Shown here: positions 7,310 through 37,399 of the stretch, piece after piece
Layout of the letters: every line of letters starts with the position of its first letter
How positions within the stretch are numbered: position 1 is the first letter of the stretch
Origin: a phage
Sequence record: PZ386975.1
Strand: one strand, 5' to 3'
Length of the DNA: 64,000 nucleotides
Made by a program: the position numbers and the translations under genes
The notes under the pieces: generated by a model
What the model was told of the DNA's origin: nothing
Databases searched by the model: none
What the model saw: the letters and a program-made list of their open reading frames with translations, nothing else

Positions 7310-7310
7310 T

Positions 7311-8111: not shown

Positions 8112-8172
8112 GCCTTTATAAATCTTACAAGCCTCCTTAGTTGGGGGCTTTTTAGTAATTAAGGGAGGAAGA

Positions 8173-8916: not shown

Positions 8917-8924
8917 AAGAGAGA

Positions 8925-12435: not shown

Positions 12436-12453
12436 TCTCTAAAAGTTACTTTA

Positions 12454-12482
12454 AAGCCCTGTACTTAGTATGGGGCTTTTTC
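12454..12482 (+). terminator. rho-independent terminator
   Basis: agccctgtacttagtatggggct hairpin followed by T run. Confidence 0.55.
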
Positions 12483-12497
12483 ATATGGAGAGTCACA

Positions 12498-14013: not shown

Positions 14014-14510
14014 GAAAAATAAAAGGTTTTGGCAATTGCCCTGAATATGGACATTGGGTTTCACTATGTGGTGAAGTTGACCCAGCAAAGCACTTTGGCT
14101 TTGTCTACCTAGTGTACTGCAAAAAGACTGGACAGTACTATTTGGGTAAGAAACAGCTTAATAGTGTGACCAAAAGGAAAGTTGCTGGGAAGACTCGGAA
14201 GAAGGTAGTCACTAAGGAAAGTGATTGGATGACTTATGAAACTTCTTCTGAGTATATTAAAAAAGATATCGAGAGCTTTGGAAAAGAATTTTTTGACTTT
14301 TACATTATCCAAACCTACTACACAAAAGGTGGCCTAGTCTATGGTGAAGCAAACCTTCAACATAAATTCGATGTAATGACAAAAAGGATTGACTCGAAGC
14401 TCAGACTCTTCTACAATGCCAATATTGCAGCAATTAAGTTTATTACTAAAGAAACTTATGAAGATGTTGAAAAAAGAATCCATAAGGTAATGAAAGCAAA
14501 TTGTGCTTGA
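14010..14510 (+). CDS. GIY-YIG-like endonuclease
   Basis: GFVYLVYCKKTGQYYLGK fits the GIY-x10-YIG pattern. Confidence 0.4.
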   Translation: MRKIKGFGNCPEYGHWVSLCGEVDPAKHFGFVYLVYCKKTGQYYLGKKQLNSVTKRKVAGKTRKKVVTKESDWMTYETSSEYIKKDIESFGKEFFDFYIIQTYYTKGGLVYGEANLQHKFDVMTKRIDSKLRLFYNANIAAIKFITKETYEDVEKRIHKVMKANCA

Positions 14511-14533
14511 TAACTATTGAGAGAGAGAATAAA

Positions 14534-14782
14534 ATGTTTAACAAAAGCAAAGCTGTGAGCCATGTAGCAAAAGTTGATAGCAAGATTGAAGAACTTGAGC
14601 GCATTCTTGCAAATGCCAGAGAGTCAATAATCAAAGAAGTTGAAGCTGTTGAATCTCAAATGCAGCACCTAATGCTTAAACGTCAAGAGCTACGTGAGCA
14701 TCTAGAATATATTGAAACACGAGAGCTAAAGGTTAACAAATATTTTAAGGAGTCCGAATGTTTAACTCAAGAGAATCAGTAA
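14534..14782 (+). CDS. hypothetical coiled-coil protein
   Basis: Start moved to MFNKSKAV, which has an RBS. Confidence 0.35.
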   Translation: MFNKSKAVSHVAKVDSKIEELERILANARESIIKEVEAVESQMQHLMLKRQELREHLEYIETRELKVNKYFKESECLTQENQ

Positions 14783-15513
14783 AAAACTGGAACCTTCGTT
14801 GTGGAAACACTCAAAAGCAACCTTACAGTAATGAGTATTGGGAATCTTTAAAATCTCAATCTCTGTGTATGCTTGAAGAAGCAAAAGAGCTTGTAAAAGC
14901 AATTGAAGAGAAAGACCCCATTGAGACACTGGATGCTCAGGCAGATTTGCAATATGTTCTTGACGGATTGATTTATCTGTCACAACATGACCATAACGGT
15001 GCTATGAAAGCTGTTTGCCATAATAATGACCTGAAGTACACAGATGACTATGAAGAAGCTTTAAAGCGTCTTGCAGATATTGAGAAGCGTACTGGTCAAG
15101 AGTGTATTATCAGAATGTCAGTAGTTGATGGTAAAGAGTGGTATGCGATTGTTCGTGCAGCCGATGGGAAGATTATGAAGCAATCAAATCTCCCTAAAGT
15201 ACAGCTTGGTGAATACATTGTAGAACTTGAAAGCCAAGAACTTTTTGTGGTAGTATCTGAGACATGCGTTATCTGCAAAGGTATTGTAGGTAGCTTAAAG
15301 GATTTGGGTGTAGATGGTTTTGTAGAAGTTAATCCAATTACCTCTAAAGCAGATAAAGACTTCTGTAAAGAGAATGGGCTATGGATTGCAGATATTGTCT
15401 ACTATGATGGTGAGCAGTTCCATGTAACCTCATACCCGAAACTGAATTATGATGCTAATAACCTGAAGTGCTGGTTAAAAGGGGTTGGTTATAATGGATT
15501 CACAGAACATTAA
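14758..15513 (+). CDS. MazG-like nucleotide pyrophosphohydrolase domain protein
   Basis: LEEAKELVKAIEE...DAQADLQYVLDGL resembles the MazG EExxE/D helix pair. Confidence 0.4.
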   Translation: MFNSRESVKNWNLRCGNTQKQPYSNEYWESLKSQSLCMLEEAKELVKAIEEKDPIETLDAQADLQYVLDGLIYLSQHDHNGAMKAVCHNNDLKYTDDYEEALKRLADIEKRTGQECIIRMSVVDGKEWYAIVRAADGKIMKQSNLPKVQLGEYIVELESQELFVVVSETCVICKGIVGSLKDLGVDGFVEVNPITSKADKDFCKENGLWIADIVYYDGEQFHVTSYPKLNYDANNLKCWLKGVGYNGFTEH

Positions 15514-15817
15514 TAAAGAGGGTGTGGCTCAGAAGAGCCACTTCTCAAACTACAATATTTCTATGACGGTGTTTATGAATGACCCGTTACTTGAAAAGTA
15601 TGGTGAGACTCCAGATACACTTCTGGATAATGAACAAGTTTTAAAAGCAGTCCTGTACAAATATGGGATTGATATTGAGAAAGAGTATTCCTTTGAAATC
15701 TGCCAACACAGGAACACTTTCGGTAAAGTTGTGATGGCTCCACTCTTTATGGGTGTAGAAAGGACTGACTATGGTTGGTTGTATCTAAAAAGAAACTTGG
15801 AGAAATACCGTGTCTAA
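15485..15817 (+). CDS. hypothetical protein
   Basis: ORF in co-directional block. Confidence 0.3.
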   Translation: MVIMDSQNINKEGVAQKSHFSNYNISMTVFMNDPLLEKYGETPDTLLDNEQVLKAVLYKYGIDIEKEYSFEICQHRNTFGKVVMAPLFMGVERTDYGWLYLKRNLEKYRV

Positions 15818-16145
15818 AGCAAAAAAGCTATCTTATGATGACATTATATCAGGTGCTAAGTTAGGTGTTGACAGTATCGGACAAGACGTTAAGCACGGAG
15901 ACACAGTTATGTACTGTGATGACCGAAGAGGTAGAAGTGCAATCTTGTTTGGGAGAATTGTTTGCAAGATGCGAGGTAATTACGTTGTTGCAGACATGTA
16001 TGTGAACGTTACACAAAAGCTTGAAACAATTATGGATGCTAATACACCATCATGGTTCCTGAATTGTATGCACACTTCTTCAGTCACAAAGGTAAGTGAT
16101 AAGTTTTACGATATGTGGCAGAATGAGCAAATTTTCAAGATTTAA
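15810..16145 (+). CDS. hypothetical protein
   Basis: ORF in co-directional block. Confidence 0.35.
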   Translation: MSKAKKLSYDDIISGAKLGVDSIGQDVKHGDTVMYCDDRRGRSAILFGRIVCKMRGNYVVADMYVNVTQKLETIMDANTPSWFLNCMHTSSVTKVSDKFYDMWQNEQIFKI

Positions 16146-16149
16146 ACTA

Positions 16150-16174
16150 GGGAGCCTCTTCGGAGGCTCTTTTC
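16150..16174 (+). terminator. rho-independent terminator
   Basis: gggagcctcttcggaggctc hairpin then TTTT. Confidence 0.6.
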
Positions 16175-16191
16175 ATCTGTAGGATTCAAAA

Positions 16192-18426
16192 ATGATTAAG
16201 ACAATTAAAAAATCAAACGGTACAGTAGTAAGCTTTGACCCAGAAAGACTGAATAAGTGGGCATCATGGGCAGATAAGCGCGGAATCATCTGGTCAGAAG
16301 TCACTATGGAAGCCATGAAACGTGTCTATGAAGGTTGCACTACAAAAGAGATGCACCAAGCCATGATTGATGTTTGTGTTGATAAACAAACTCAAGAGTA
16401 CTCAGATATGGCTGGACGGCTACTTCTGGGAATTATCTACAAAGAAGCCTTTGGAGGTTTTACTAAGGTTCCTACGCTGGTTACCTTCGTTAAAAATATG
16501 GAGAGAGCAGGACTTTGGGAGAAGATGGACTATTCTCAGGAAGAGCTTGAATACCTGCAAGGGTACATTGTGCACTCAAAAGATATCTCTTATGGTTATG
16601 CAGTCCTGAAACAGTTCAGAGACAAGTATGGTATCCGTGATATTAAAACGGGAAGACTTTTTGAGTCACCACAATTTATGTTTATGGGTATGGCTATGAA
16701 AGCCTTTGAGAAGCAACCAAAGCACCGTAGACTGCAAGATGTTATCAAGCTGTACACTTACCTATCTGACCTGAAGATTAACGCTCCTACACCTTATTTA
16801 AACGGTTTAAGAGCAACTAAATCAGGCTATGCGTCATGCTGTTTGATTAAGGCAAATGACACTGCCGAATCTCTCGGTATTGCTGCAAAGGTTGCTTATG
16901 ACATGACTACAAAGCAAGCTGGTATCGGGATGCTGATGGAGACTCGCACTATTGGTGATGGTATCCGTCAAAACACGATTGAGCACATGGGTAAGCTGCC
17001 TTATTATAAGCTTGTACGTTCATCTGTAGAGGCAAACAAACAGAAGAGTCGTGGTGGTTCAGCTAATAACTTCTACACTGCTCTAGACCCGCAGATTGAA
17101 GATTTACTGCGTTTGAAGCACCCTACAACGGTTCCTTCTAAACGTATTAATGAGATGGACTACTCATTCGGCACAAACGATTATTTCTGGCAGTGTGTTC
17201 AGTATGATACGGATTGGTTGCTATTCTCTTACAAAGATGCACCAAAACTCTATGACATGTTCTACACAGCATCTGCTGATGAGTTTGCTATGGCAGTTGG
17301 TCACGCAGTACATTCAGGAGTTAAGCACAGACGAGTAAAGGCTCGTGAAATTGCCAAGCTGTTTATTCAACAGCGTTATGCTACAGGTCGTGTGTATCCA
17401 TTCTTCACTAACAATGCGAACACACATACACCATTTAAAGAACCATTGAAGATGTCAAATCTTTGTATGGAAATTGTGTTGCCAGTGTATGGTTTTGAGA
17501 AAGAGACAGACCTTTACAGAGACGATGCTGTGAAAGAGGATGGTGAGGTGGCTCTTTGCTTCCTAGCTAGTTTGGTTGCAGGGAGAATTTCAGAAGATGA
17601 ATACGCTGACGTTGCTTATTATGCTCTTGCAATGGTTGACTCCGTTATTGACCTTATGGATTATCCGTATCCGTCGATGCGTAACCATGTTCAGAAGCGT
17701 CGTTCTGTTGGGATTGGCCTTACAAATGTGGCTCATTACCTTGCGAAGAACTACGTGAACTACTCTTCACGAGCAGGTAAAACGAAACTTCATGAACTGG
17801 CAGAGATGCACTCTTACTATCTGCATGAAGCCTCTCTGAGACTTGCTAAAGAGCGTGGCGTTCCAGAATACATGAAGTTCACTAAGTATCCTGAAGGCTG
17901 GGTTCCTCCAAAGACAGCTAACAAGAAGATTGATGAAAAGCATGATGCAAAACTACGATATGATTGGGATGACTTAGCACAACGTATCAAAGAAAATGGT
18001 GGAATCCGAAACTCTGTATTAGAAGCTTACATGCCTAATGAGAGTTCTTCACTGGCAACCAATACGACAAATGGCTTGTATCCAATTCGTGACTTTATTT
18101 TAACTAAAAAGTCTGCAACTGGTAACGTACTGTTTATTGTTCCAGATTATGAAGAGCTAAAGTATGTCTATGAAATTGCTTGGGATATTGACACCTTTGA
18201 TATGATTGATTGTTATGCAATTGTTCAAAAGTTCACTGGTCAAGCTATCTCTTCAGACTTCTATGTTGACTATGCAAAGTCTAAGAAGGTATCATTGTCT
18301 CAAGCTCTGAAGTACATGATTTATGCCAACTCAGTAGGTATGAAAACCATGTACTACCTTAACAGTCGCATTGGTGTAGGTAAATCTGCACTGCAAGATG
18401 CTTATTGCGAGGGTTGTGGTGTTTAG
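16192..18426 (+). CDS. nrdA: ribonucleotide reductase class Ia large subunit
   Basis: 744 aa, N-terminal ATP-cone-like start, C-terminal YCEGCGV tail typical of class I alpha subunits. Confidence 0.8.
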   Translation: MIKTIKKSNGTVVSFDPERLNKWASWADKRGIIWSEVTMEAMKRVYEGCTTKEMHQAMIDVCVDKQTQEYSDMAGRLLLGIIYKEAFGGFTKVPTLVTFVKNMERAGLWEKMDYSQEELEYLQGYIVHSKDISYGYAVLKQFRDKYGIRDIKTGRLFESPQFMFMGMAMKAFEKQPKHRRLQDVIKLYTYLSDLKINAPTPYLNGLRATKSGYASCCLIKANDTAESLGIAAKVAYDMTTKQAGIGMLMETRTIGDGIRQNTIEHMGKLPYYKLVRSSVEANKQKSRGGSANNFYTALDPQIEDLLRLKHPTTVPSKRINEMDYSFGTNDYFWQCVQYDTDWLLFSYKDAPKLYDMFYTASADEFAMAVGHAVHSGVKHRRVKAREIAKLFIQQRYATGRVYPFFTNNANTHTPFKEPLKMSNLCMEIVLPVYGFEKETDLYRDDAVKEDGEVALCFLASLVAGRISEDEYADVAYYALAMVDSVIDLMDYPYPSMRNHVQKRRSVGIGLTNVAHYLAKNYVNYSSRAGKTKLHELAEMHSYYLHEASLRLAKERGVPEYMKFTKYPEGWVPPKTANKKIDEKHDAKLRYDWDDLAQRIKENGGIRNSVLEAYMPNESSSLATNTTNGLYPIRDFILTKKSATGNVLFIVPDYEELKYVYEIAWDIDTFDMIDCYAIVQKFTGQAISSDFYVDYAKSKKVSLSQALKYMIYANSVGMKTMYYLNSRIGVGKSALQDAYCEGCGV

Positions 18427-18481
18427 TTTTAACAACTATGAGGGTCGTAAAAGACCCTCTAAAAATAACTTTGGAGAGACC

Positions 18482-18739
18482 ATGAAAGATTTAATAGAAA
18501 AACATGAGCGGCCTATATACTTGCTCCACAAGCCTCGGAAAACGATGTACTATGTGAGTAGCACAGATATGATGATAAAACAAAATGATGACTCATGGGT
18601 TGCTGGTATCTCTTACATCTCTACAGCAGATGGTAAAATCTACGCAAGACCTTATGAGATGTTTAACAAAGAAAATTGGGAAGTTTTAGACAGAAAACAA
18701 GCCTTAGAAATGATAAAGAAAGGAGAAATCACGCTATGA
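18482..18739 (+). CDS. hypothetical protein
   Basis: Start moved to MKDLIEK, which has an RBS. Confidence 0.35.
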   Translation: MKDLIEKHERPIYLLHKPRKTMYYVSSTDMMIKQNDDSWVAGISYISTADGKIYARPYEMFNKENWEVLDRKQALEMIKKGEITL

Positions 18740-19809
18740 TTAACCAGCACCCAATCTTTTTAGGTGGTGAGAGAAAAACTTTTGACTCACTTAATAAGCA
18801 CTACCCAAAAATCTTTGAACTTTATAAACAACAAAAAGCACAAGACTGGTCAGAAGATGAGTTCCCTTTTGAACAATCACGTCTTGATTTTGAGAGTGTC
18901 CCAGCATCAATGTCAGGTGTAATGCTTGAGATTCTTAAGTGGCAATGGGAAGCAGATACTCAAGTTGCTAAGAGCTTGGCATTTGCCTTTGCACCATTTA
19001 TCTCTGATGACATTTATGCAACTGCAATTATGAAGCAGTCTGAGATTGAAAACCTACATGCTCTCACTTACTCAGAGATTGTAAGACAATGTATTAAAAA
19101 CCCTGAAACAATCTTAGATGAGATTAACCAGAATGTTGCTGTGCAAGACCGATTAAAAACTGTGAATCGTGTTCTTGAAGAATTACTGGATGAAGGGATA
19201 AACTACCGACTGAGTTATGTCCGTGATTCACTTCTGGACAAAGACCCTTTACACTTCCATAAAGTGATTCTGAAAGGTCTATTTGCAGTGACTGCACTGG
19301 AAGGTATATCTTTTATGGCATCCTTTGCATGTACTTTTGCACTTGATGCTCAAGATAAATTTCAGGGTATTGCTCAAGCTGTGCAGAAGATTATGCTTGA
19401 TGAAATCCTTCACACTAAAATTGATATTGAAGTTTTAAAAGAAACTTTAAGGGATGATGAGTGGCAGAAAGCTTTTCAACAAATTCTTCCAGAGATTAAA
19501 GTAATCTTAGATGAAGTAGTTGAAAGTGAAGAGAAATGGTCGTATTATATCTTCTCCGAAGGACGTGCTGTAGTTGGCTTAAATACAAAGCTTCTTCATG
19601 AGTGGGTTTATTATAATGCTGCCCCACTGTATGATATGTTTGGCATTCCCAGAGATTTTGTAGCTCCTAAAGAACCACCTTTAAAGTACATGATTAAGAA
19701 GATGGAAATTGATAAAGAGCAGAATGCTAATCAGGAGCAACAGAACGGTGCGTACCTATTGAATACTGTTGTAGATGATTTGAATAGTGGATTTTTAGAG
19801 GTTCCTTAA
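18736..19809 (+). CDS. nrdB: ribonucleotide reductase class Ia small subunit
   Basis: Ferritin-like iron-binding region (EILHT); start moved to MINQHP after AAGGAGA RBS; directly follows nrdA. Confidence 0.75.
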   Translation: MINQHPIFLGGERKTFDSLNKHYPKIFELYKQQKAQDWSEDEFPFEQSRLDFESVPASMSGVMLEILKWQWEADTQVAKSLAFAFAPFISDDIYATAIMKQSEIENLHALTYSEIVRQCIKNPETILDEINQNVAVQDRLKTVNRVLEELLDEGINYRLSYVRDSLLDKDPLHFHKVILKGLFAVTALEGISFMASFACTFALDAQDKFQGIAQAVQKIMLDEILHTKIDIEVLKETLRDDEWQKAFQQILPEIKVILDEVVESEEKWSYYIFSEGRAVVGLNTKLLHEWVYYNAAPLYDMFGIPRDFVAPKEPPLKYMIKKMEIDKEQNANQEQQNGAYLLNTVVDDLNSGFLEVP

Positions 19810-20051
19810 TGACTTATGTAATTTACTCCAAAACTGGATGCCCTCAGTGTGAGACTGCAAAGAATTTTGCAAAAGCTCGTGGTATTGACCATGTTGTGAG
19901 AATGTTAGGGCAGGACTATGAGCTATCAGACTTGATGGATATTGCACAGATGCCAGTTCGTCAGATGCCATTCATCATGAAAACCGATGGACAAAACCTA
20001 AAACCTGTTGGGACGCTACAGAATTTTATGGCAGAGGTGAATAATGCTTAA
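19809..20051 (+). CDS. glutaredoxin/NrdH-like redoxin
   Basis: CPQC active-site motif in 80 aa, adjacent to RNR genes. Confidence 0.65.
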   Translation: MTYVIYSKTGCPQCETAKNFAKARGIDHVVRMLGQDYELSDLMDIAQMPVRQMPFIMKTDGQNLKPVGTLQNFMAEVNNA

Positions 20052-20250
20052 ACGCATTTGGGAAGGTTTGGTTGTTGATGCACCAGCTATTGTGATTGGT
20101 ATGCTTATTGTTAACCTATTTACTGACTTTGAACAAGGTTCATTGTTTGGAGCCATGTTACTATGGGTTATCTTCGAAATATTAGAGATACAGTTAGGTA
20201 TCACTGAAAAACTAAGAGAACTCTTTGCGAAGTTTTCTAAAAAGATTTAA
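20044..20250 (+). CDS. small membrane protein
   Basis: Hydrophobic 68 aa ORF. Confidence 0.3.
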   Translation: MLKRIWEGLVVDAPAIVIGMLIVNLFTDFEQGSLFGAMLLWVIFEILEIQLGITEKLRELFAKFSKKI

Positions 20251-20257
20251 AATGAAA

Positions 20258-20279
20258 GGGTCTCTTCGGAGACCTTTTT
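20258..20279 (+). terminator. rho-independent terminator
   Basis: gggtctcttcggagacc hairpin then TTTTT. Confidence 0.6.
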
Positions 20280-20298
20280 AGCATGTAAAGGGGAAATA

Positions 20299-21498
20299 AT
20301 GAACAAAGTACAGATTATTAAAAAGAATGGCTCACTCGAAGAACCTGATATCAAAAAAGTTTTAGCAGCAGTCACAAAGTCAGCTAATAGGGTTGGGTAT
20401 AAAGAACTCCCACCAGATGTTACTCAAGCTCTTGAGTCAGCATTTATGAGGATTCTGGTAAAGTCCACTAAGCAGAATAATTTGCTAATTTCTGTAAACG
20501 ATATTCACAGTATTGTTGAGGGTGCTTTGGCAGAAGTCAATCACGAAATTTATGAGTCTTACTCAACATACAGAAATTACCGTAAAGAAGTTGCTCAAAA
20601 TTGGGATGAACTCTACCAGAAGACCAAAGATACACTCTTCTTAGGTGACAGAGAGAATGCTAACTTTGACAGCAGTTTAATTTCTACAAAAGGCTCAATT
20701 ATTCGTGGTTACCTGACTAAAGAAATCTTTAAACAGTACCATTTAACACCAGAGGAACTTGAAGCCATTGAAAAAGGGTTTATCTATATCCATGATTTAA
20801 GAGACCTAATTTTTGGTGGTATCAACTGTTGCCTGTTTGACATTGGTAAAGTCCTGAAAGGTGGCTTTGAAATGTCTGGCATCGAATATTGTGAACCAAA
20901 GTCTGTGCTGTCGGCCTTACAGGTTATTGGTGACGTAGTTCTTTCAGCAACTGCACAGCAATTTGGTGGCTTTACTTTAGCAGAGATTGATAAGGTACTC
21001 GTACCGTATGCTAAGAAGTCTCTACGCTATCATGCTGAGAAAGCAGCATCTTATGGTATTCCTAAAGAACATTACCACAATTATATCATGGAGCAGCTAC
21101 AGATTGAACTGACTCAAGGTTTCCAGTCACTTGAAATGAAACTCAATACTGTGCCTTGTAGCCGTGGGGATTTTGCATTTACAACTTTGACATTCGGGTT
21201 ACTTGATTCAGATATGTCTAATGAAGATAACCGACTGCAATACATGATTGCAAGTACTCTCCTAGATGTTCGTATGAATGGACAAGGTAAGAGCAAGAAG
21301 CCTGTTGTATTCCCTAAACTGGTTTATATTTATGACCAGAAGAGACACGATGAGAATATCTGTCAAGGACACCTGTACAGTAAAGCCATTGAGTGTTGCT
21401 CTAAAGCAATGTATCCAGATTTCTTAAGTGTATCTGGTCATGGTGCTGTAGCAGAGGCTTTTGAGCGTTCTGGTAAGGTTATTTCACCGATGGGTTAA
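20299..21498 (+). CDS. nrdD: anaerobic ribonucleotide reductase (class III), exon 1
   Basis: Ends ...ISPMG at a position that in E. coli NrdD is followed by CRSFL; stop codon lies in the insert. Confidence 0.65.
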   Translation: MNKVQIIKKNGSLEEPDIKKVLAAVTKSANRVGYKELPPDVTQALESAFMRILVKSTKQNNLLISVNDIHSIVEGALAEVNHEIYESYSTYRNYRKEVAQNWDELYQKTKDTLFLGDRENANFDSSLISTKGSIIRGYLTKEIFKQYHLTPEELEAIEKGFIYIHDLRDLIFGGINCCLFDIGKVLKGGFEMSGIEYCEPKSVLSALQVIGDVVLSATAQQFGGFTLAEIDKVLVPYAKKSLRYHAEKAASYGIPKEHYHNYIMEQLQIELTQGFQSLEMKLNTVPCSRGDFAFTTLTFGLLDSDMSNEDNRLQYMIASTLLDVRMNGQGKSKKPVVFPKLVYIYDQKRHDENICQGHLYSKAIECCSKAMYPDFLSVSGHGAVAEAFERSGKVISPMG

Positions 21499-22237
21499 CA
21501 AGCTCTATAGCTCATCTAAAACGTGCCTAAACAGGGAAACTCTACAGATGTAGACAATCCTGTGCTAAATGATGTACGATGTAAGAAACTATACAACATA
21601 GGAGTCTTACATGCCAAACTATCACGTCACTGAAGATGGAAAAGTCTTTAGGGAAAATGGTGTAGAGCTTACGCAGTGGAAATCCAACACTGGGTATATG
21701 AAAGTGAGGTTTTACGGTAAGAAGAATCGTGACATGTATGTCCACAGGTTAGTTGCTGAGAAATATGTACCTAACCCGAATAATCTTCCAATTGTAAAAC
21801 ATAAGGACGATAACAAACTAAATAACCACGCATCTAACTTAGAATGGGGTACTCATTCTGAGAATGCTAAAGAAGGTTATGAGAACGGTTGCTACAAGTT
21901 CCACAAGCGTTCATATGCCGTGAAAGCCACACACAAAGTGACAAGGGAAGTTATTGTTACTAAGTCAATACGAGAGTTATCCAATATACTTGGACACAAT
22001 CGCAAGACCATCTCTTCAATATTGAAGGGTGTAAAAGAGCATAATAACTTCGAATATGAGTTTGAATACATCTAAATGCCGAACGACTAACCGTGATGAA
22101 TGTAGCGGTGTAGGGTCAAGCGACTCGAAATGGTACGCTACTTAGAAATAAGTAGAAGATATAGTCTGGACTTACTGGCGACAGTAAGCAGCTTGAATAA
22201 AGCGGGGTAAGCTTAGCGAACTTACCTGAACAACAAG
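21499..22237 (+). mobile_element. intervening sequence in nrdD, probable group I intron carrying an HNH endonuclease
   Basis: Exon 1 ends in T; in-frame sequence CRAFLSPYLNENGEEFYVGRANIGAVSLNLP resumes at 22238; insert ends in G. Confidence 0.55.
21611..22075 (+). CDS. HNH homing endonuclease (intron-encoded)
   Basis: IVKHKDDNKLNNHASNLEWGTHSEN HNH motif. Confidence 0.65.
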   Translation: MPNYHVTEDGKVFRENGVELTQWKSNTGYMKVRFYGKKNRDMYVHRLVAEKYVPNPNNLPIVKHKDDNKLNNHASNLEWGTHSENAKEGYENGCYKFHKRSYAVKATHKVTREVIVTKSIRELSNILGHNRKTISSILKGVKEHNNFEYEFEYI

Positions 22238-23185
22238 TGTAGAGCATTTTTATCACCATATCTTAACGAGAATGGGGAAGAGTTCTATGTAGGTCGTGCT
22301 AACATTGGTGCTGTGTCTTTGAACTTACCAATGATTTACCAGTATTCTAAAGAGAATGAATTAGATTTCTGGAAAGAGCTTGATAAGTACCTAGAAATGA
22401 TTCGCAGCTTCCACAAGAAACGTTACGAAATGATTGCTAATATGCCAGCAAGTTCTAACCCTCTTGCGTTCACACAAGGTGGTCTGTACAAAGGGAATAA
22501 GAAACCTACTGACAGGGTTGGCTGGGATATCGTGAAGTCCTTCACAGCTTCTTTTGGGGTTACTGCGCTTGATGAGCTATCTGTTCTTGCTGAAGGTAAA
22601 CGACTTCATGAAGTTGGAAGCTGTAGTTTTGCATACGATGTTCTGGAATACATCAACATGAAAACTGAAGAGTTTAAAAATGAAGATGGCTTCTTATATG
22701 CCGTCTATGGTACTCCAGCAGAATCACTTTGTGGAACTCAGCTAAAACAGTTCAGAGATATGTTTGGCGTTATCAAAGGTGTTTCTGATAAGGAATACTT
22801 TACAAACAGCTTCCATATGAATGTTGCAGCAGACATTACACCATTTGAGAAGCAGGACTTAGAAGAACCCTTCTTCCATATCTGTAGAGGCGGTAGAATC
22901 CAGTATGTAAGAGTGGCTAATCCAGAAAACTTATCAGCACTTAAGAGTTGTATTACGAGAGGTATGTTGAAAGGTTTCTATCAGGGACTGAACTTTGACT
23001 TAGCAATCTGTGAACATTGCGGTAACAGACCAAAGGCTGATGTTGAAGAATGTGAGGTTTGTCATTCACATGATATCTCTGTGATTAACAGGGTGTGCGG
23101 GTATCTCGGGTGGACTAAGATTAAAGGCGAATCCCGAATGAATGATGCAAAAATCGCTGAGATTCGTGACAGAGTTTCTATGTAA
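22238..23185 (+). CDS. nrdD: anaerobic ribonucleotide reductase (class III), exon 2
   Basis: Contains glycyl-radical region NRVCGYLG near C-terminus; frame is open upstream of the annotated GTG at 22313. Confidence 0.65.
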   Translation, partial: CRAFLSPYLNENGEEFYVGRANIGAVSLNLPMIYQYSKENELDFWKELDKYLEMIRSFHKKRYEMIANMPASSNPLAFTQGGLYKGNKKPTDRVGWDIVKSFTASFGVTALDELSVLAEGKRLHEVGSCSFAYDVLEYINMKTEEFKNEDGFLYAVYGTPAESLCGTQLKQFRDMFGVIKGVSDKEYFTNSFHMNVAADITPFEKQDLEEPFFHICRGGRIQYVRVANPENLSALKSCITRGMLKGFYQGLNFDLAICEHCGNRPKADVEECEVCHSHDISVINRVCGYLGWTKIKGESRMNDAKIAEIRDRVSM

Positions 23186-23194
23186 AACTTGACA

Positions 23195-23233
23195 AGGTGA
23201 TGTGAGTCTTGATAGGCTTACATCACCTTTTTT
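23195..23233 (+). terminator. rho-independent terminator
   Basis: ggtgatgtgagtcttgataggcttacatcacc hairpin then TTTTTT. Confidence 0.55.
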
Positions 23234-23339
23234 ATTGGATGTTAGATATGGCAGAGAACATCATTGGCCTATTCATAGGTTCTGTCTTACTAGGGTTCTT
23301 TTTAGGACTCTCTTATTGTGAATTAAGAGGCAAGTTAAA

Positions 23340-23540
23340 ATGTTTAAAATATCAAAAACGTTGATATACATACTACACATAGCAATCTTCTTCTTTGGTG
23401 TTAGTGTTATGGTGTGGGGTTTCTCAGACCCACAATGGAGCCTCTCATATCATGGTCAGATGGATTTATGGTCATGCTTCAAACCATTTTTAGGGTTAGC
23501 TATAGCATTCAGTGCATTGCCAACTAAGGTGAAATTATGA
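23340..23540 (+). CDS. small membrane protein
   Basis: Hydrophobic N-terminal helix. Confidence 0.3.
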   Translation: MFKISKTLIYILHIAIFFFGVSVMVWGFSDPQWSLSYHGQMDLWSCFKPFLGLAIAFSALPTKVKL

Positions 23541-23932
23541 TTAAGTTGAACAAAAAACAGTTAGAGTGGATTAAAGATTATGCCTCAGAGTGTGGCTCTT
23601 GCGAAAAGAATCACGTAAGATACTCAACATTCCATACGACCTTCACACTGTATATTGGTGACAATGTTCTAAGTGATTCTGTGGAAGATGGTGTAGCATT
23701 ACCTAATGAATTACTTGATAAACTAGCTGTAGTTTCTGGAACTTGGTCTGAAGAAGATGGTCACGAACTCTCTGATGATGTTGTATTCTACACCCTTGAA
23801 AACATCATGAATCCAGAGTACATTATGCTAATGACTTGCGCACAAGATTGTGTACCATTACAAAACTTCATTAAAGAGCACTGTGAAGAATTTATTACTA
23901 AACAGGTTCCTTGTCAGGTGGTGTTTGAATGA
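23537..23932 (+). CDS. hypothetical protein
   Basis: ORF in co-directional block. Confidence 0.35.
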   Translation: MIKLNKKQLEWIKDYASECGSCEKNHVRYSTFHTTFTLYIGDNVLSDSVEDGVALPNELLDKLAVVSGTWSEEDGHELSDDVVFYTLENIMNPEYIMLMTCAQDCVPLQNFIKEHCEEFITKQVPCQVVFE

Positions 23933-24228
23933 GTAAAACAATTCGAAGAAAAGGTTTAAAGAACGTTCATGGGCTTTATGAGTGGAGAAATGAGGTACGT
24001 AACAGAGAAAACGCTTCAGATGTCTACTTCCATTCTGATATGATGTCCAGAAAAGGTGGCTCTTATGACTTCACAAGTCAGCCTTGTAGAGAGATTAAGA
24101 AGGCTACTAAACGTCTTACAAGAACACAAATAAGGCAGCTTTCTAAGACATCTTTCTTAGATGAAGACTTTGACATTGACAGCAAGTCTCCAAAGAAAGC
24201 TGCTCAGAGCACTTATATGTATTGGTGA
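23929..24228 (+). CDS. hypothetical protein
   Basis: ORF in co-directional block. Confidence 0.35.
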   Translation: MSKTIRRKGLKNVHGLYEWRNEVRNRENASDVYFHSDMMSRKGGSYDFTSQPCREIKKATKRLTRTQIRQLSKTSFLDEDFDIDSKSPKKAAQSTYMYW

Positions 24229-24237
24229 GGTAACTAG

Positions 24238-24723
24238 ATGAATTACATGGAGATTAGACCATTTGACACAGCTAATGGTGAAGGGGTTCGTGTAAGCCTC
24301 TTCGTAGCTGGTTGTAAGCATCACTGTGAAGGCTGCTTTAACAGGGAGTCTTGGAAGTTTAATGCTGGTAAAGAGTTTACCTATGCAAACCTCTACGGCA
24401 TCATTAAGTTAATGGATGATAATGCTATCAGTGGGTTGTCAATACTTGGTGGGGAGCCTCTGGATGACAGAAACATTCAAGAGGTCACCAACATATGCAA
24501 GCGTATTAAAACTGTTTATCCAGAAAAGTCTATATGGCTTTGGACAGGTTTTCAACTGCACGAAAAAATTCACCTAGATGTGATGAAATATGTTGACGTG
24601 GTGATTGATGGTAAGTATGATTCATCTAAACCAACAGTTAAACCATATCGTGGTTCTGATAACCAAAACCTCTGGAGAAAAGAGTATGGGTGGCAAGGTG
24701 ATTGTCAATGGCGAGCAGAATGA
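24238..24723 (+). CDS. nrdG: anaerobic ribonucleotide reductase activating protein (radical SAM)
   Basis: CKHHCEGC = CxxxCxxC radical-SAM cluster motif; 161 aa. Confidence 0.7.
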   Translation: MNYMEIRPFDTANGEGVRVSLFVAGCKHHCEGCFNRESWKFNAGKEFTYANLYGIIKLMDDNAISGLSILGGEPLDDRNIQEVTNICKRIKTVYPEKSIWLWTGFQLHEKIHLDVMKYVDVVIDGKYDSSKPTVKPYRGSDNQNLWRKEYGWQGDCQWRAE

Positions 24724-25566: not shown

Positions 25567-25579
25567 ACAGATACTATAA

Positions 25580-25603
25580 GGGAACCTTTACAGTTCCCTT
25601 TTT
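25580..25603 (+). terminator. rho-independent terminator
   Basis: gggaacctttacagttccc hairpin then TTTTT. Confidence 0.55.
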
Positions 25604-25617: not shown

Positions 25618-26133
25618 ATGTATCTGTCAAACCTGAAACGTTCGGCTGCAATGTCAGTTCTAAGACTCAGCTTTGAGGAACGTCAAGAGTTCATTGACTC
25701 CCACCAATACGACCCTTCTAACTCGAATCACATGGTTCTTTGGAATCGTGATAACTTCCGTGAAAGAGCACTTGTCCGTTATTACCCACACTACACAATA
25801 GATAACCTGTATGAATGGTGTGTTGTGAAGAACACTATTGCAACACTGAACAATCTTTGCAGGTATACAGGTAAGCAAGCATTTACATTAGGTCACCACA
25901 AACCTGTTACAAAGGGTGGTGAGCATCACTGTGCAAACTGGTTTATCCAGACTAAACTTGATAACCAGAAGCAAGGAGATAGCCTTCTAAGCATCCCTAA
26001 GATGACCTATGAAGAGCAAGAGAAATATATCAAAAATAATATGCCAGATGTGCTTGACAACAACTATACAGATTTGGCAATATCTCTCCTGTTGAAGTTC
26101 GAGACAGTTTATAGGGCAACTTACAATGGCTAA
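25618..26133 (+). CDS. hypothetical protein with possible HNH-like motif
   Basis: LGHHKPVTKGGEHHCANWFIQTKLDNQ. Confidence 0.3.
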   Translation: MYLSNLKRSAAMSVLRLSFEERQEFIDSHQYDPSNSNHMVLWNRDNFRERALVRYYPHYTIDNLYEWCVVKNTIATLNNLCRYTGKQAFTLGHHKPVTKGGEHHCANWFIQTKLDNQKQGDSLLSIPKMTYEEQEKYIKNNMPDVLDNNYTDLAISLLLKFETVYRATYNG

Positions 26134-26404
26134 AGAGAAGTGGGAGCTTTTACCATTAATCAGTGAAGGCGGTAATGGTTGTGAAATGTACATGATACGT
26201 GGTCATGTTCCAGAACCAATTGCACTTGAGATGGTAAACAACTTTACAGATGGCTCTTACAAAGACTTAGAGGAGCCAACTATAAAGCAGCAATGGGTAA
26301 AGCCTGTACCAGATAGCACAGGTAACTGTAGTGTACTTTATCACGTTGTAGACCCTGCAAAATGCAAATCTGCAATGGCAGTAACAAACGTAACTTTTGA
26401 TTGA
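26126..26404 (+). CDS. hypothetical protein
   Basis: ORF in co-directional block. Confidence 0.3.
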   Translation: MAKEKWELLPLISEGGNGCEMYMIRGHVPEPIALEMVNNFTDGSYKDLEEPTIKQQWVKPVPDSTGNCSVLYHVVDPAKCKSAMAVTNVTFD

Positions 26405-27297
26405 GAGGGAAAACTATGAAAACTGTTATTGAAGCCGTCGTCACCGCACAAGAGAAATTCTTCCACACAGAAAAATTTAATATCATTCAATTCCCATCTG
26501 GAGAAATTGGTGGAAACTTCTCTGAAGATTTTGTTAAGTTTACTGAGCGTAATGCTGGTAAGATTGATAATGTTATACTTACTGTACAGGGATATGACAA
26601 AGACACACTGTTTGCATTAGCTTTGGCTAAAGATGCCGTTGACAGTCTTGTTCCCCAGAAATCAGCGATGAAAACCGTTGTTTTCGGGTTCTTACCAAAT
26701 GCTCGATATGACCGCCACATGTTCAAAGGTGATGCAGCAGCACTGAAAGTCTTTGCCAACCTCGTTAATGCAATGGGTTTTGATGCAGTATGTGCTCTTG
26801 ACCCTCACAGTAATGTTGCAGAAAACTTATTTAAGTGCTTTCAGAGCATGAAGCAAAAAGATGTTGCAGCACACTTTGCAAGTGACCCACGCATTGATTT
26901 CTTGGTAGCCCCAGATGCAGGTGCAGCTAAGAAGACTGAAAATACCGCTAAAGAAGTGGATAAACCGTATATCACAATGTCTAAGGTACGTAACCTTAAG
27001 ACTGGTGAAATTACTGGTATGCGAATCCTTGATGATGTTGATTTGACAGATAAAACTGTCATGATTCTGGATGATATTTGTGATGGAGGCCGAACCTTCG
27101 TAGAGGCAGCGAAACACCTACGCGAAGCAGGTGCAAAACGTGTGGAACTATATGTAACACATGGAATTTTCTCTAAAGGTGTTGAAAACTTGCTTGACAA
27201 CGGAATCGACCATATCTACACTACAAACACTTTAGGTGAAGCTAAAGACCGTGGATTAACACATTATGGTCAAGTTACTGTAGCAAACATTGATTGA
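26401..27297 (+). CDS. ribose-phosphate pyrophosphokinase homologue (Prs-like; possibly ADP-ribose pyrophosphokinase of NARP1 type)
   Basis: DPHSNV (ribose-phosphate site-like) and ILDDICDGGRTF (PRPP-binding loop-like); 298 aa. Confidence 0.6.
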   Translation: MRGKTMKTVIEAVVTAQEKFFHTEKFNIIQFPSGEIGGNFSEDFVKFTERNAGKIDNVILTVQGYDKDTLFALALAKDAVDSLVPQKSAMKTVVFGFLPNARYDRHMFKGDAAALKVFANLVNAMGFDAVCALDPHSNVAENLFKCFQSMKQKDVAAHFASDPRIDFLVAPDAGAAKKTENTAKEVDKPYITMSKVRNLKTGEITGMRILDDVDLTDKTVMILDDICDGGRTFVEAAKHLREAGAKRVELYVTHGIFSKGVENLLDNGIDHIYTTNTLGEAKDRGLTHYGQVTVANID

Positions 27298-27306
27298 AAC
27301 TTTATA

Positions 27307-27330
27307 GGGGGCTTCAAAGCCCCATTTTGA
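27307..27330 (+). terminator. hairpin, weak terminator
   Basis: gggggcttcaaagcccc then attttg. Confidence 0.35.
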
Positions 27331-27343
27331 GAGAGATTAAAAG

Positions 27344-29125
27344 ATGACTAAATCACTTTATGCAGTACCAGCAGGTTTAAATGCGGACGCTTACAAGTCT
27401 GGCCATATATACCAGTACCCCAGTGCAACAGAGTACTTGATGTTCAACCTGACACCACGTAGCGACAAATGGTTTAACAGCCCTTTGGCAATTGACGGTG
27501 TAGTGGCTTTTGGTATTCAACGTTTTGTTAAAGATTACTTGATAGACCACTGGAATGCCACTTTCTTTGAACGTGATAAAAAAGAAGCAATTGACGAAAT
27601 CTTAGAAGTCATGAATGGTGTTCTGGGTAAAGATGCTATCGGTCGGGAGCATTGGGAAGCACTTCACGACTTAGGTTATCTACCAGTTGGAGTATACGCT
27701 GTAGAAGAAGGCACAGTTGTCCCTATGCGTGTTCCGATGATTGTTTTCCAGAACACTGTTTCAGGTTTCCATTGGGTAGCAGGTTATCTAGAAGATGCTT
27801 TCTCTGCTGAGATTTGGAAGGCTTGTACCATTGCAACTATTGCATTGCACTACAAACGTATCTGTAAGAAGTGGGCTGACCTTACTTGTGATAACGACTT
27901 ACATTTACCTTATCAGTGCCATGACTTTGCTATGCGTGGTATGTCCGGCTTTACTGATGACGCATTTAACGCTGTAGGCCACTTAACCAGCTTTAAAGGG
28001 ACTGATAGCTTCCCTGCTGTATATACAGCTAAACGCATCTACGGACAGTCTTACCCAGTCTCTGATATTGGTGGTTCTGTACCAGCCACTGAACACTCTG
28101 TAATGTGTGCAAACATTGCTTGGGAAGGTGGTAATGAATTGATTGAAGAAGAAAGACGCTTTAAAGGTGAATTACAAACCTTCCGTCGCTTCTTAACAGA
28201 AACTTATCCAACTGGTATTGCAAGTGTTGTTTCAGATACTTATAACTTCTGGAGAACTGTGTCAGAAATCTTACCAGCACTCCGTAAAGAAATTATGGAA
28301 CGTGATGGTAAACTGGTGATTCGTCCTGACTCTGGAGACCCTGTACATATTGTCACAGGCTATAAAGCAATCCACTTAGAGTGTGCTAAGAAGGCTTATT
28401 ACGAGCACCTGAGCAAGCTGGAAGCTAGTGACACAATGCTGAATGCTGTTCTGAACATGAAGCTTGAAAACATCAACTATGGTATTGCTGGATGGCTACT
28501 GTCAGAAGGCTACGAAATGGTTGTTGACAGAGAAGACTTTGAAGTTGCGGATACAGTATTGCTAAAGAACGCTTATATGGTTGGTTCTGCAAACGTTGTA
28601 ACACGCCCTGTAGCAGAGATTGATGGAGCTATTAAGACACTGTACAACATCTTTGGAGGGACTATCAACTCTAAAGGGTTTAAGGTACTGGATGAGCACA
28701 TCGGCCTTATCTATGGTGACTCTATCACACTGGAACGTGCAAACGAAATCCTGAAGCGCCTGTATGAAATGGGTTTTGCAAGCTCTAACGTAGTGTTTGG
28801 CGTAGGCTCTTACACTTACCAGTACATGACTCGTGACACCTTTGCATTTGCTGTCAAAGCAACTCTTGCAAGCATTGGTGGTAAAGAGGTTATGCTTGCA
28901 AAAGACCCTAAAACAGATAGTGGTGTTAAGAAGTCTGCTTTTGGTGGTGTAGCACCTATGTGGGATGGTGATAAGTTGAAAGCTGTAGATGGCTATGGAT
29001 TCCAGAGCTTTGCAGATGCACTTGAACATCCAGCTTGTGCTTTACGTTTAGTCTTTAGTGACTCTGAGCAGTACGGTTACACATCTCTTGGTGATATTCG
29101 AAATAATATTGACAAGCAGCTTTAA
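27344..29125 (+). CDS. nicotinamide phosphoribosyltransferase homologue (NAMPT/NadV-like; possibly Namat of NARP1 type)
   Basis: 593 aa with NAMPT-like architecture; adjacent to Prs homologue; no NMNAT gene seen nearby. Confidence 0.6.
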   Translation: MTKSLYAVPAGLNADAYKSGHIYQYPSATEYLMFNLTPRSDKWFNSPLAIDGVVAFGIQRFVKDYLIDHWNATFFERDKKEAIDEILEVMNGVLGKDAIGREHWEALHDLGYLPVGVYAVEEGTVVPMRVPMIVFQNTVSGFHWVAGYLEDAFSAEIWKACTIATIALHYKRICKKWADLTCDNDLHLPYQCHDFAMRGMSGFTDDAFNAVGHLTSFKGTDSFPAVYTAKRIYGQSYPVSDIGGSVPATEHSVMCANIAWEGGNELIEEERRFKGELQTFRRFLTETYPTGIASVVSDTYNFWRTVSEILPALRKEIMERDGKLVIRPDSGDPVHIVTGYKAIHLECAKKAYYEHLSKLEASDTMLNAVLNMKLENINYGIAGWLLSEGYEMVVDREDFEVADTVLLKNAYMVGSANVVTRPVAEIDGAIKTLYNIFGGTINSKGFKVLDEHIGLIYGDSITLERANEILKRLYEMGFASSNVVFGVGSYTYQYMTRDTFAFAVKATLASIGGKEVMLAKDPKTDSGVKKSAFGGVAPMWDGDKLKAVDGYGFQSFADALEHPACALRLVFSDSEQYGYTSLGDIRNNIDKQL

Positions 29126-29139
29126 AAGTATATGATAAG

Positions 29140-29162
29140 AGGCTCCTACGGGAGCCTTTTTA
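29140..29162 (+). terminator. rho-independent terminator
   Basis: aggctcctacgggagcct hairpin then TTTTT. Confidence 0.6.
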
Positions 29163-29178
29163 ATTTCTGGAGAAAACT

Positions 29179-29514
29179 ATGAAAATCAAAGAGATGAACA
29201 TCAACGTTGTCTTAGAAGAACGTTGGGAGAACATTAAGAAGCCTGAAGATGGTAAAAAGTTCCTTAACAAAATTTTAGTAGCAGCTAAAGAAGAACTGAC
29301 TGGGAAGATTGCAGCAGCAATCACAATAAAGGTTTGTGTAAAAGGTCTTCCACAACATCACCAGTTTGCTCTTGACGAGTTTAAAGAAAGCTTCTACAAT
29401 CCAAATAAACAGATGCTTGAAAGTAACTTTGCAGTATCTACAAGTATCGTTCATGACAGAAGCTTTATCCTTTACAAAAACATGAGAGGTGAGTCATGCA
29501 AGCATATTGGATAG
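29179..29514 (+). CDS. hypothetical protein
   Basis: ORF in co-directional block. Confidence 0.35.
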   Translation: MKIKEMNINVVLEERWENIKKPEDGKKFLNKILVAAKEELTGKIAAAITIKVCVKGLPQHHQFALDEFKESFYNPNKQMLESNFAVSTSIVHDRSFILYKNMRGESCKHIG

Positions 29515-36613: not shown

Positions 36614-37399
36614 ATGGGTATTGTAAAAATCATCAATGGTGATATCTTTGCAGCATTTGATAAAGGTAAGTTTGACGTCATTGGTCACGGTTGCAACTGT
36701 ATGAATTTAATGGGTGCAGGTATCGCTGACAAGATTTCTAAACTTTACCCAAAAGCATATGAGACTGATACAGAAGTTTATCTATATGCAGGCGGTATAG
36801 GCCACAAACCCTGTGAAAATTTACTGGGTAATTTCTCCGTAGCACGTTTAAAACAAGGTCGTATAGCTAACCTTTACACTCAGCTTAAGACTGGTAAAGA
36901 TGCCAGATACAGTGCTTTAGAGTCATCTTTGAAACAGCTTAACAGATACTGTGAAGTCAACCAGTTGAAGAAGGTTGGTCTACCTATGATTGGTGCAGGT
37001 ATCGGTGGGCTAGACCCTCAAGCCGTCACAGTTATCATTAATCAGGTGATGAAGAGTGTAGATGTGTATCTTTATGTCTACGAAGGAGAGATGTACCACA
37101 AGTTACGCTCAGGTTGGAAGAACTACTGTGAACCAGAATACTTTGCAGGTGTAGTAGTGTTCACTAATGATGCAGTTACCCTCTTCAGACGAAGAAAAGG
37201 TAAGATACATCAAAGTAACCCTCCGGTTGAAAAGATGTCTCTAAGTAACGCTCTAGTTACCCACCTGTCGAAGAGCAGTCACAGGATTGCAGTAACATTT
37301 GGCAGTGATGCAGATGCTTACATCTATGCAAGAACTGATGAGGATATCGAGACGGTTTTCTCTTCACCAGAGCTTACCTTCTTAGACGCAAAGAACTAA
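36614..37399 (+). CDS. macrodomain protein (TARG1/OARD1/DarG-like ADP-ribose processing)
   Basis: GDIFAAFDKGKFDVIGHGCNCMNLMGAGIA and LPMIGAGIGGL resemble the TARG1-type macrodomain (GDLF...AHCISEDCRMGAGIA; PRIGCGL) as recalled. Confidence 0.55.
   Translation: MGIVKIINGDIFAAFDKGKFDVIGHGCNCMNLMGAGIADKISKLYPKAYETDTEVYLYAGGIGHKPCENLLGNFSVARLKQGRIANLYTQLKTGKDARYSALESSLKQLNRYCEVNQLKKVGLPMIGAGIGGLDPQAVTVIINQVMKSVDVYLYVYEGEMYHKLRSGWKNYCEPEYFAGVVVFTNDAVTLFRRRKGKIHQSNPPVEKMSLSNALVTHLSKSSHRIAVTFGSDADAYIYARTDEDIETVFSSPELTFLDAKN

Follow-up and report, generated by a model that had tools for sequence, protein, structure and literature searches.

NARP1 is a two-gene phage pathway that restores NAD+ in cells whose NADase defenses have consumed it. 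It was found by deleting genes 79 and 80 of Escherichia phage JohannRWettstein (Bas63) (Osterman et al., 10.1101/2024.02.11.579819). Plaque numbers of the deletion mutant on SIR2-HerA cells were lower by approximately 20-fold; only wild-type Bas63 restored NAD+; and a new metabolite, ADP-ribose pyrophosphate (ADPR-PP), was seen only when wild-type Bas63 was combined with the defense system (10.1101/2024.02.11.579819). According to the literature on the Bas63 genes, the pathway is independent of host PncC and NadR. In this study, we analyzed a pair of adjacent genes, adps and namat, in a 64,000-nucleotide stretch of phage DNA (sequence record PZ386975.1; hereafter, the window, meaning the whole stretch). 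The pair is very probably a functional two-gene NARP1 counter-defense operon (Adps and Namat) of a Felixounavirus. The pair as such is not new to this phage genus, as it is the published discovery case of NARP1.

The enzymology of NARP1 was established with homologs from the Bacillus phage SPbetaL1. Adps of SPbetaL1 makes ADPR-PP out of ADP-ribose (ADPR) plus ATP, and the Prs-type control reaction with this enzyme yielded no product (10.1101/2024.02.11.579819). SPbetaL1 Namat combines ADPR-PP with nicotinamide to form NAD+ and favors ADPR-PP over phosphoribosyl pyrophosphate (PRPP). Function was abolished by the substitutions K162A in Adps and R306G in Namat. Structures are available for SPbetaL1 Namat (9W5X and 9W5W), which contains a 'selectivity clamp' (PMC12774641), and for Adps of Vibrio phage ICP1 in the apo, substrate-bound, and product-bound states (PMC13586617). 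Extended and alternative pathways have also been described. NARP1-AP has the order Adps-Adpp-Namat, in which Adpp is a Macro-domain ADPR-1''-phosphate (ADPR-1''-P) phosphatase encoded within the operon, and overcomes aRES (Vibrio phage Gary; 10.64898/2026.01.28.702374). In RyDEP, a RyR-domain glycosidase in the NARP1 locus converts cyclic ADPR signals to ADPR (mycobacteriophage DyoEdafos; 10.64898/2026.05.28.727677). NARP3 consists of PnuC and a NadR-like bifunctional enzyme (Bas30; PMC13464706).

Two adjacent open reading frames (ORFs) are located on the plus strand of the window at 26401-27297 and 27344-29125. Position 26401 is merely the first in-frame TTG of the Prs-like ORF. The likely start is the ATG at 26416, which gives a protein of 293 amino acids (aa), is preceded at a distance of 6 nucleotides (nt) by the Shine-Dalgarno sequence GAGAGGG (26403-26409), and is the start annotated for the adps homolog in Bas63. 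The coding features are as follows, with the gene names being those predicted here.

26416-27297, plus strand: adps, ADP-ribose pyrophosphokinase of 293 aa (Bas63 orthology, Pfam, PHROGs, and residue mapping)
26983-26985, plus strand: codon of the catalytic Lys190 of Adps (alignment)
27070-27099, plus strand: PP loop of Adps, DDICDGGRTF (alignment)
27344-29125, plus strand: namat, nicotinamide ADP-ribose transferase of 593 aa (Bas63 orthology, structure-sequence matches, and residue mapping)
27452-27484, plus strand: selectivity clamp loop (SCL) of Namat, TPRSDKWFNSP (alignment)
28094-28096, plus strand: codon of the catalytic His251 of Namat (alignment)
28322-28324, plus strand: codon of Arg327 of Namat (alignment)
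28388-28618, plus strand: 77-aa insertion in Namat, residues 349-425 (alignment with SPbetaL1 Namat)
28805-28837, plus strand: selectivity clamp helix (SCH) motif of Namat, GSYTYQYMTRD, residues 488-498 (alignment)

Pfam assigned Pribosyltran and Pribosyl_synth to the first protein and NAPRTase and NAMPT_N to the second, and the best PHROGs families were phrog_619 (4.9e-99) and phrog_448 (7.7e-202), respectively. A megablast search with positions 26300-29200 matched 258 phage records, nearly all of them Felixounavirus, at identities of up to 96.3%; the hosts of the matched Felixounaviruses are Escherichia, Salmonella, Shigella, and Citrobacter. On this similarity, the window is assigned to Felixounavirus. 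Bas63 matched 99% of the query at 95.8% nucleotide identity. The first protein is identical to Bas63 gp79 (bas63_0079) at 288 of 293 residues (98%) and the second to Bas63 gp80 (bas63_0080) at 578 of 593 (97%), both ungapped, and none of the 20 substitutions (5 in Adps and 15 in Namat) falls on a mapped functional residue. The annotated gene order is shared as well: nrdG, small ORFs, bas63_0079, bas63_0080, small ORFs, rIIA, and rIIB. The same-strand layout of adps followed by namat recurs in Bas63, SPbetaL1, ICP1, Vibrio phage IW18, and Erwinia phage Coenus. In a Nei-Gojobori comparison with Bas63, dN/dS was 0.079 (adps) and 0.049 (namat); therefore, both are functional genes under strong purifying selection and not chance ORFs. 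A first-pass annotation, made by a model from the sequence alone, had described adjacent Prs-like and NAMPT-like genes at 26401-29125. The adjacency was borne out by the ORFs, Pfam, PHROGs, and dN/dS, and both ORFs lie within that span, but the first gene probably starts at ATG 26416 and not at TTG 26401.

To place published residues on the second protein, Namat sequences of the window, Bas63, IW18, and SPbetaL1 were aligned with a KVP40-like Nampt. The published SCH consensus is GSX-Phi1-X-Phi2-X-Phi3-TRD, in which the third and seventh motif positions are aromatic (PMC12774641). The window motif GSYTYQYMTRD, which is identical in Bas63, fits this consensus with Y490 and Y494 as the aromatic residues; its Phi3 residue is Met, where the consensus is 'mainly Asn/Val' (PMC12774641). 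At the same position, the KVP40-type Nampt reads GGGLLQQLDRD, without the adenine-clamp motif. In the SCL, Arg, Lys, or Tyr occupies the third position; with Lys or Tyr, the fourth residue stacks, and Bas63 is the Lys example (PMC12774641). The window sequence S40-D41-K42-W43 is the same as that of Bas63 and would represent this case of Lys followed by a stacking residue. The core residues D15, Y17, F195, R198, D221, H251, R327, D329, G458, and D459 are all kept, of which Y17, F195, R198, D221, H251, R327, and D329 are shared with Nampt and are therefore necessary but not discriminating. Among Protein Data Bank (PDB) sequences, the window protein matched SPbetaL1 Namat (9W5W/9W5X) at 427 bits, followed by more distant members of the NAMPT family (7yqo, 'Pre-B cell enhancing factor related protein') at approximately 179 bits and human NAMPT at approximately 140 bits.

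The first-pass annotation had also singled out the length of the NAMPT homolog, and 27344-29125 does encode 593 aa. The excess over the 491-aa SPbetaL1 enzyme comes mainly from the 77-aa insertion, together with approximately 15 extra residues at 258-277. The insertion is equally long in Bas63 and has a shorter form in IW18. It is absent from the Namat homologs of SPbetaL1, Staphylococcus, Mycobacterium, and ICP1 and from the KVP40-type Nampt. Many Namat homologs of phages with Gram-negative hosts align unbroken across it, with varying length. The insertion may add a regulatory or interaction function without counterpart in the crystallized SPbetaL1 enzyme, a suggestion weaker than that of a Macro protein acting in trans, which is considered below.

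The first protein was treated in the same way by aligning Adps of the window, Bas63, ICP1, IW18, SPbetaL1, and Coenus with E. coli Prs and mapping the ICP1 residues. K190 aligns with SPbetaL1 K162 and ICP1 K185 in both alignments; PRPS has an equivalent Lys, and K190 is thus necessary for Adps but not discriminating. The acceptor set R97, H131, D167, D219, D220, and D223 is kept, as are the stacking Phe, F26, and also F228. The features described for ICP1 Adps include a remodeled PP loop (C215-S220) shared across Adps proteins and aromatic contacts to ADPR and ATP through F18, F92, F221, and F223 (PMC13586617). The PP loop reads DDICDGGRTF in the window, DDICDGAASF in ICP1, and DDMIDTGGTL in E. 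coli Prs, so that C-D-G is common to the window and ICP1. The loss of PRPS's C-terminal alpha11-alpha12 module is described as an evolutionary hallmark that defines the Adps family (PMC13586617). In the alignment with E. coli Prs, the window protein lacks this module and ends soon after the last core strand.

Profile scores pointed in the same direction. Against the NCBIfam models NF002320 and NF002095, the window protein scored 102 bits (cut-off 297; E. coli Prs 533) and 114 bits (cut-off 296). It passed only the broad TIGR01251 (139.6 against a cut-off of 113) and stayed below every Prs equivalog cut-off. It reached 332 bits with the phage family phrog_619 and 72 bits with the best PDB Prs. 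Bas63 Adps, 98% identical to the window protein, served as a query for, and is a member of, the published phage-specific Adps clade. Pairwise identity was dropped as a test between Adps and Prs, as the values for the window protein (29% with SPbetaL1 Adps and 25-27% with E. coli Prs) are uninformative at such distances; the assignment was based instead on orthology to Bas63 and on the signature features.

Adps and Namat differ in how they vary among Felixounaviruses. Relative to the window, Adps falls into two identity classes, with approximately 50 records at 95-99% and approximately 200 at roughly 78-83%, whereas 206 records have Namat at 95-99% identity. The pattern suggests that adps alone has undergone allelic replacement or is mosaic. 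The minority adps allele is common to the window and Bas63. One record matching positions 26300-29200 at 95.4% identity, GU169904, is named 'Staphylococcus phage SA1' although the region belongs to phages of Enterobacteriaceae, which suggests a mislabeled or mixed record.

The first-pass annotation had proposed that the pair could be NARP1, and this proposal gains support from the 98% and 97% identity to the Bas63 proteins, the gene order, and the Namat and Adps signatures. Its further statement that sequence alone cannot tell NARP1 from conventional PRPP and NMN synthesis was too cautious. The near-identity to the Bas63 type genes, together with the Namat clamp motif and the Adps signatures, separates the pair from Prs/NadV. 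From the 97-98% identity to the Bas63 genes, the window proteins are predicted to confer the NARP1 phenotype, and we infer that they share the activities of the Bas63, SPbetaL1, and ICP1 homologs.

Several points weigh against this assignment. Bas63 Adps 'did not purify well', and the enzymology was done on the SPbetaL1 homologs (10.1101/2024.02.11.579819). Identity between the assayed homologs and the window proteins is just 29-30% for Adps and 46% for Namat. SPbetaL1 Namat also makes nicotinamide mononucleotide (NMN) from PRPP in vitro, and some conventional activity is possible. Two ICP1 Adps contact residues are changed in the window, F92 to M102 and F223 to E230; both positions are variable in SPbetaL1 and Coenus too. 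The 77-aa Namat insertion is not discussed, structurally or functionally, in PMC12774641.

In the proposed mechanism, an NADase defense (SIR2-HerA/Nezha, type I Thoeris, DSR1/DSR2, SEFIR, or similar) would cleave NAD+ to ADPR and nicotinamide. Adps (26416-27297) would then transfer the beta-gamma pyrophosphate of ATP onto ADPR's distal ribose, giving ADPR-PP and AMP. Namat (27344-29125) would replace the pyrophosphate of ADPR-PP with nicotinamide to yield NAD+ and inorganic pyrophosphate, with no NMN intermediate and no need for an NMNAT.

Pfam was used to scan 71 ORFs of the window, namely 10 ORFs flanking the operon and 61 further ORFs of at least 90 aa; outside these scans lay shorter ORFs at a distance from the operon, ORFs truncated by the window ends, and approximately 23 kb of the genome beyond the window. 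No CTP_transf_like/NMNAT, NUDIX, NadR, or PnuC family was reported for the 71 ORFs, and none matched the RyR/R12 domain (PF02026). The earlier remark that no NMNAT gene is seen nearby thus agrees with the Pfam result, and an NMNAT encoded elsewhere among the scanned window ORFs was ruled out on the same ground. No Macro domain was found by Pfam in the ORFs flanking the operon; the sole Macro ORF lies 7.5 kb downstream. As judged from gene content, the window locus is the plain two-gene form of NARP1, and not NARP1-AP, RyDEP-extended NARP1, NARP2, or NARP3.

The Macro ORF is the basis of the alternative that survives best.

36614-37399, plus strand: Macro-domain ORF of 261 aa (Pfam Macro at 32.3 bits, cut-off 22; phrog_335 'phosphatase')

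It lies 13 genes downstream of NARP1 and corresponds to bas63_0095 in Bas63. The alternative holds that the Macro protein acts in trans as an ADPR-1''-P phosphatase and so completes a functional NARP1-AP that resists aRES; we consider this unlikely. A variant, in which the Macro protein otherwise releases free ADPR that feeds the two-gene NARP1 in trans, is doubtful to the same degree. The Pfam Macro domain, the 'phosphatase' label of phrog_335, and the presence of the gene in Bas63 favor such a split pathway. In Vibrio phage IW18, a Macro gene lies between Adps and Namat, which is the NARP1-AP layout, and the N-terminal approximately 155 aa of the window protein show distant homology to it (28% identity, 56 bits, pairwise E 1e-14). 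The published survey for Adpp covered only two genes on either side of each NARP1 operon (10.64898/2026.01.28.702374), and a gene 13 genes away would have escaped it. If the split pathway were true, that survey would have under-counted NARP1-AP-like capability.

The other comparisons point elsewhere. The same N-terminal region is closer to T4 Tk.4 (35% identity, 82 bits) than to the IW18 Macro protein, and Tk.4 is AdfM, a shown anti-DarTG2 factor (10.1101/2025.11.20.689424). The best NCBIfam match of the Macro ORF is the DarG antitoxin and its best PDB sequence match is TARG1/OARD1, with Poa1p appearing only at an E of approximately 0.02. Members of the family occur in 2,851 phage records, T4 included; T4 has the Macro gene, yet it is not among the Adps/Namat matches listed. 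The ORF also carries an uncharacterized C-terminal extension of approximately 100 aa with no family match. Across Erwinia Ounavirinae, the Macro gene follows the spanins and is not beside NARP1: phage vEam_S_24 matches the window in having it after the spanins, and the NARP1 locus of Coenus has no Macro gene. An apparent case of operon membership in Erwinia phages (Macro at approximately 76.0 kb in one and Namat at approximately 77.05 kb in another) was rejected as a coincidence of genome permutation. Assignment of the Macro ORF as Adpp was downgraded, because its closer homolog Tk.4 is AdfM and NCBIfam points to DarG. The ORF is probably an AdfM-like DNA de-ADP-ribosylase and anti-DarT factor, an assignment with better sequence support than Adpp.

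Conventional salvage is less likely still. By this account, the pair would be a true PRPP synthetase and a Nampt/NadV making NMN, and host NadR or PncC/NadD would finish the synthesis of NAD+; this we regard as very unlikely. Such a pair would resemble NARP2 without an NMNAT of its own, a form given an equally low probability. The names in use fit conventional salvage: Pfam, PHROGs, NF006629, and TIGR01251 give them, and all 258 related GenBank records repeat them. It is also in its favor that SPbetaL1 Namat can still make NMN from PRPP in vitro. The generic models, however, do not discriminate, since NF006629 ('nicotinate phosphoribosyltransferase') scores SPbetaL1 Namat at 594 bits and the KVP40-type Nampt at 507 bits. 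Curated models were dropped as a membership test because this model ranks a proven Namat above a true phage Nampt. NCBIfam (June 2026) contains no model for either Adps or Namat, and Namat is split from Nampt in neither Pfam nor NCBIfam. Against conventional salvage stand the lack of product from SPbetaL1 Adps in the Prs-type control reaction, the adenine-clamp motif that window Namat has and the KVP40-type Nampt lacks, and the failure of window Adps to reach any NCBIfam Prs equivalog cut-off. For Bas63, conventional salvage has already been largely refuted. That adps and namat are decayed, non-functional copies kept by synteny is hardly credible; nothing was found in its favor, and both ORFs are full length and ungapped against Bas63, every mapped catalytic residue is intact, and dN/dS values of 0.05-0.08 and the conservation contradict it.

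The two NARP1 genes have an operon-like layout, with a 46-nt gap between the adps stop codon (TGA, 27295-27297) and the namat ATG at 27344, a Shine-Dalgarno sequence before each ATG, and a terminator-like hairpin directly past namat. The features in the gap and on the flanks are as follows.

25578-25600: terminator-like hairpin ahead of two small upstream ORFs (terminator scan)
25618-26133 and 26126-26404, plus strand: two small upstream ORFs (ORF list, Pfam, and PHROGs)
27308-27323, plus strand: G+C-rich hairpin GGGGC-TTCAAA-GCCCC followed by ATTTT, in the adps-namat gap (read from the sequence)
29137-29160, plus strand: intrinsic-terminator-like hairpin with a 10-bp stem, 5 G-C pairs, and a T-run (terminator scan)

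The T-run of the hairpin in the gap is too short for a call by the terminator scan, and the namat Shine-Dalgarno sequence, GAGAGAG, lies 3' of it. The hairpin at 29137-29160 begins 12 nt past the namat stop codon, is identical in sequence in Bas63, and is taken from its position and form as the 3' end of the unit. The two upstream ORFs overlap each other; they encode a weakly HNH-like protein of 171 aa (phrog_3500) and a protein of 92 aa (phrog_4726), and the latter stops 11 nt short of the adps start. They may be co-transcribed with adps-namat and lie outside NARP1 as defined. Their order is repeated in Bas63 and in the distant phage Coenus, which says little about a functional link because the whole neighborhood is syntenic there. 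A promoter scan around the operon gave 15 sites against 11.3 ± 3.7 in shuffled sequence; as this is no excess, no promoter is claimed for the operon. The Rfam scan gave no RNA element within or adjoining the operon.

Two observations concern the 3' flank. A sigma-70-like near-consensus promoter sequence at 29109-29136 (plus strand; TTGACA, 16 nt, TATGAT; 11 of 12 positions matching) overlaps the final codons of namat, stops 1 nt before the terminator hairpin, and is kept in Bas63; a transcript from this site would begin within the hairpin. The window is also without the 114-aa ORF bas63_0081, which is next after namat in Bas63, the junction being located at 29160-29180 past the namat terminator. 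The indel is clean, covers approximately 350 bp, and is flanked by similar start-codon contexts (GAGAAAACTATGAAAATC versus AAAAGCTATGAAAATC); by its appearance, one gene cassette has been gained or lost.

Other features of the window were recorded in passing. The replication and nucleotide-metabolism block at 6887-24723 (plus strand) contains homing-endonuclease-type ORFs (two HNH_3 and one SegE-like GIY-YIG), two separate ORFs matching DNA_pol_A, and one match to a PRA-PH/MazG-like pyrophosphohydrolase. The nrdD gene (20299-23185, plus strand) comprises two ORFs, 20299-21498 and 22313-23185, separated by an HNH/AP2 homing-endonuclease ORF at 21611-22075. The Bas63 annotation has the same intron-like arrangement, namely a joined nrdD coding sequence that encloses a homing endonuclease; an Rfam scan at gathering thresholds matched no model of group I or group II introns at nrdD in the window. 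Between convergent gene blocks, 43904-45656 is a 1.75-kb stretch with a GC content of approximately 0.35 and no ORF of at least 50 aa. It is dense in short degenerate repeats of the CT(A/G)TAAAG and TTGTTA(G/A)AAG types, direct and inverted, and includes a run with a 12-nt period at 45390-45454. The stretch is conserved, as 257 Felixounavirus records contain it at 80-90% identity; one of them annotates it as 'repeat_region', and in Bas63 it is unannotated. No Rfam family matched it; from its repeats it looks iteron-like and is possibly an origin of replication. At 55053-60305 (plus strand), 23 tRNA genes (Rfam RF00005) were found, as expected of Felix-O1-like phages; because of this cluster, several small ORFs in the same interval are probably not genes.

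As a carrier of NARP1, the window phage is predicted to overcome NADase defenses that produce ADPR (SIR2-HerA/Nezha, type I Thoeris, DSR1/2, and SEFIR). Following the published reasoning, plain NARP1 alone should not overcome aRES, which yields ADPR-1''-P, and expected exposure to aRES bears on the choice of phages for therapy. The genes are named 'ribose-phosphate pyrophosphokinase', 'nicotinamide phosphoribosyltransferase', or similar in 258 of 258 related records, Bas63 among them (bas63_0079 and bas63_0080, respectively), which is a systematic mis-annotation. Re-annotation could follow simple rules: the GSX-X-X-TRD motif for Namat, and C-terminal truncation with missed Prs equivalog cut-offs for Adps.

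Compared with known systems, cellular Prs (E. coli b1207) and Nampt (human and Xanthomonas) share folds and catalytic chemistry with the window pair, namely pyrophosphoryl transfer for the first enzyme and replacement of pyrophosphate by nicotinamide for the second. Adps differs from E. coli Prs, at 25-27% identity, in being without the N-terminal segment and the C-terminal regulatory/filament helices. Window Namat matches human NAMPT at only approximately 140 bits and the Namat structures at 427 bits. NARP2 (Vibrio phage KVP40; Nampt and a bifunctional Nmnat/Nudix) and NARP3 share with the window pair the purpose of restoring NAD+ under NADase defense. Nampt of NARP2 is homologous to Namat, the KVP40-like protein being 31% identical to window Namat and without the adenine-clamp motif. 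The window differs from both systems in that no Nmnat, Nudix, PnuC, or NadR was reported among its 71 Pfam-scanned ORFs. NARP1-AP and RyDEP-extended NARP1 have the same two core enzymes, whereas the window operon has no Macro or RyR gene within or beside it.

Among the two-enzyme systems, ICP1 Adps resembles the window protein in the catalytic Lys, the acceptor Arg, His, and Asp residues, the stacking Phe from the neighboring protomer, the C-D-G of the PP loop, and the lack of alpha11-alpha12. It differs in overall sequence (30% identity), at the positions of F92 (M102 in the window) and F223 (E230), and in the PP loop (GAAS versus GGRT in the window). SPbetaL1 NARP1 has the same order of Adps followed by Namat, the catalytic Lys and Arg, and the nicotinamide-binding residues, and its SCH (GSFTYQYNTRD) has the same form as that of the window (GSYTYQYMTRD). 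It differs in identity (29% for Adps and 46% for Namat), in the 77-aa and approximately 15-aa insertions of window Namat, and in the SCL, where the window has Lys42-Trp43 in a loop four residues longer and SPbetaL1 has Arg40. The closest system is Bas63 NARP1, from which the window differs by 5 substitutions in Adps and 15 in Namat and by the absence of bas63_0081 after namat. The two agree in genus, gene order (nrdG ... gp77, gp78, adps, namat ... rIIA, rIIB), protein lengths, clamp motifs, and terminator.

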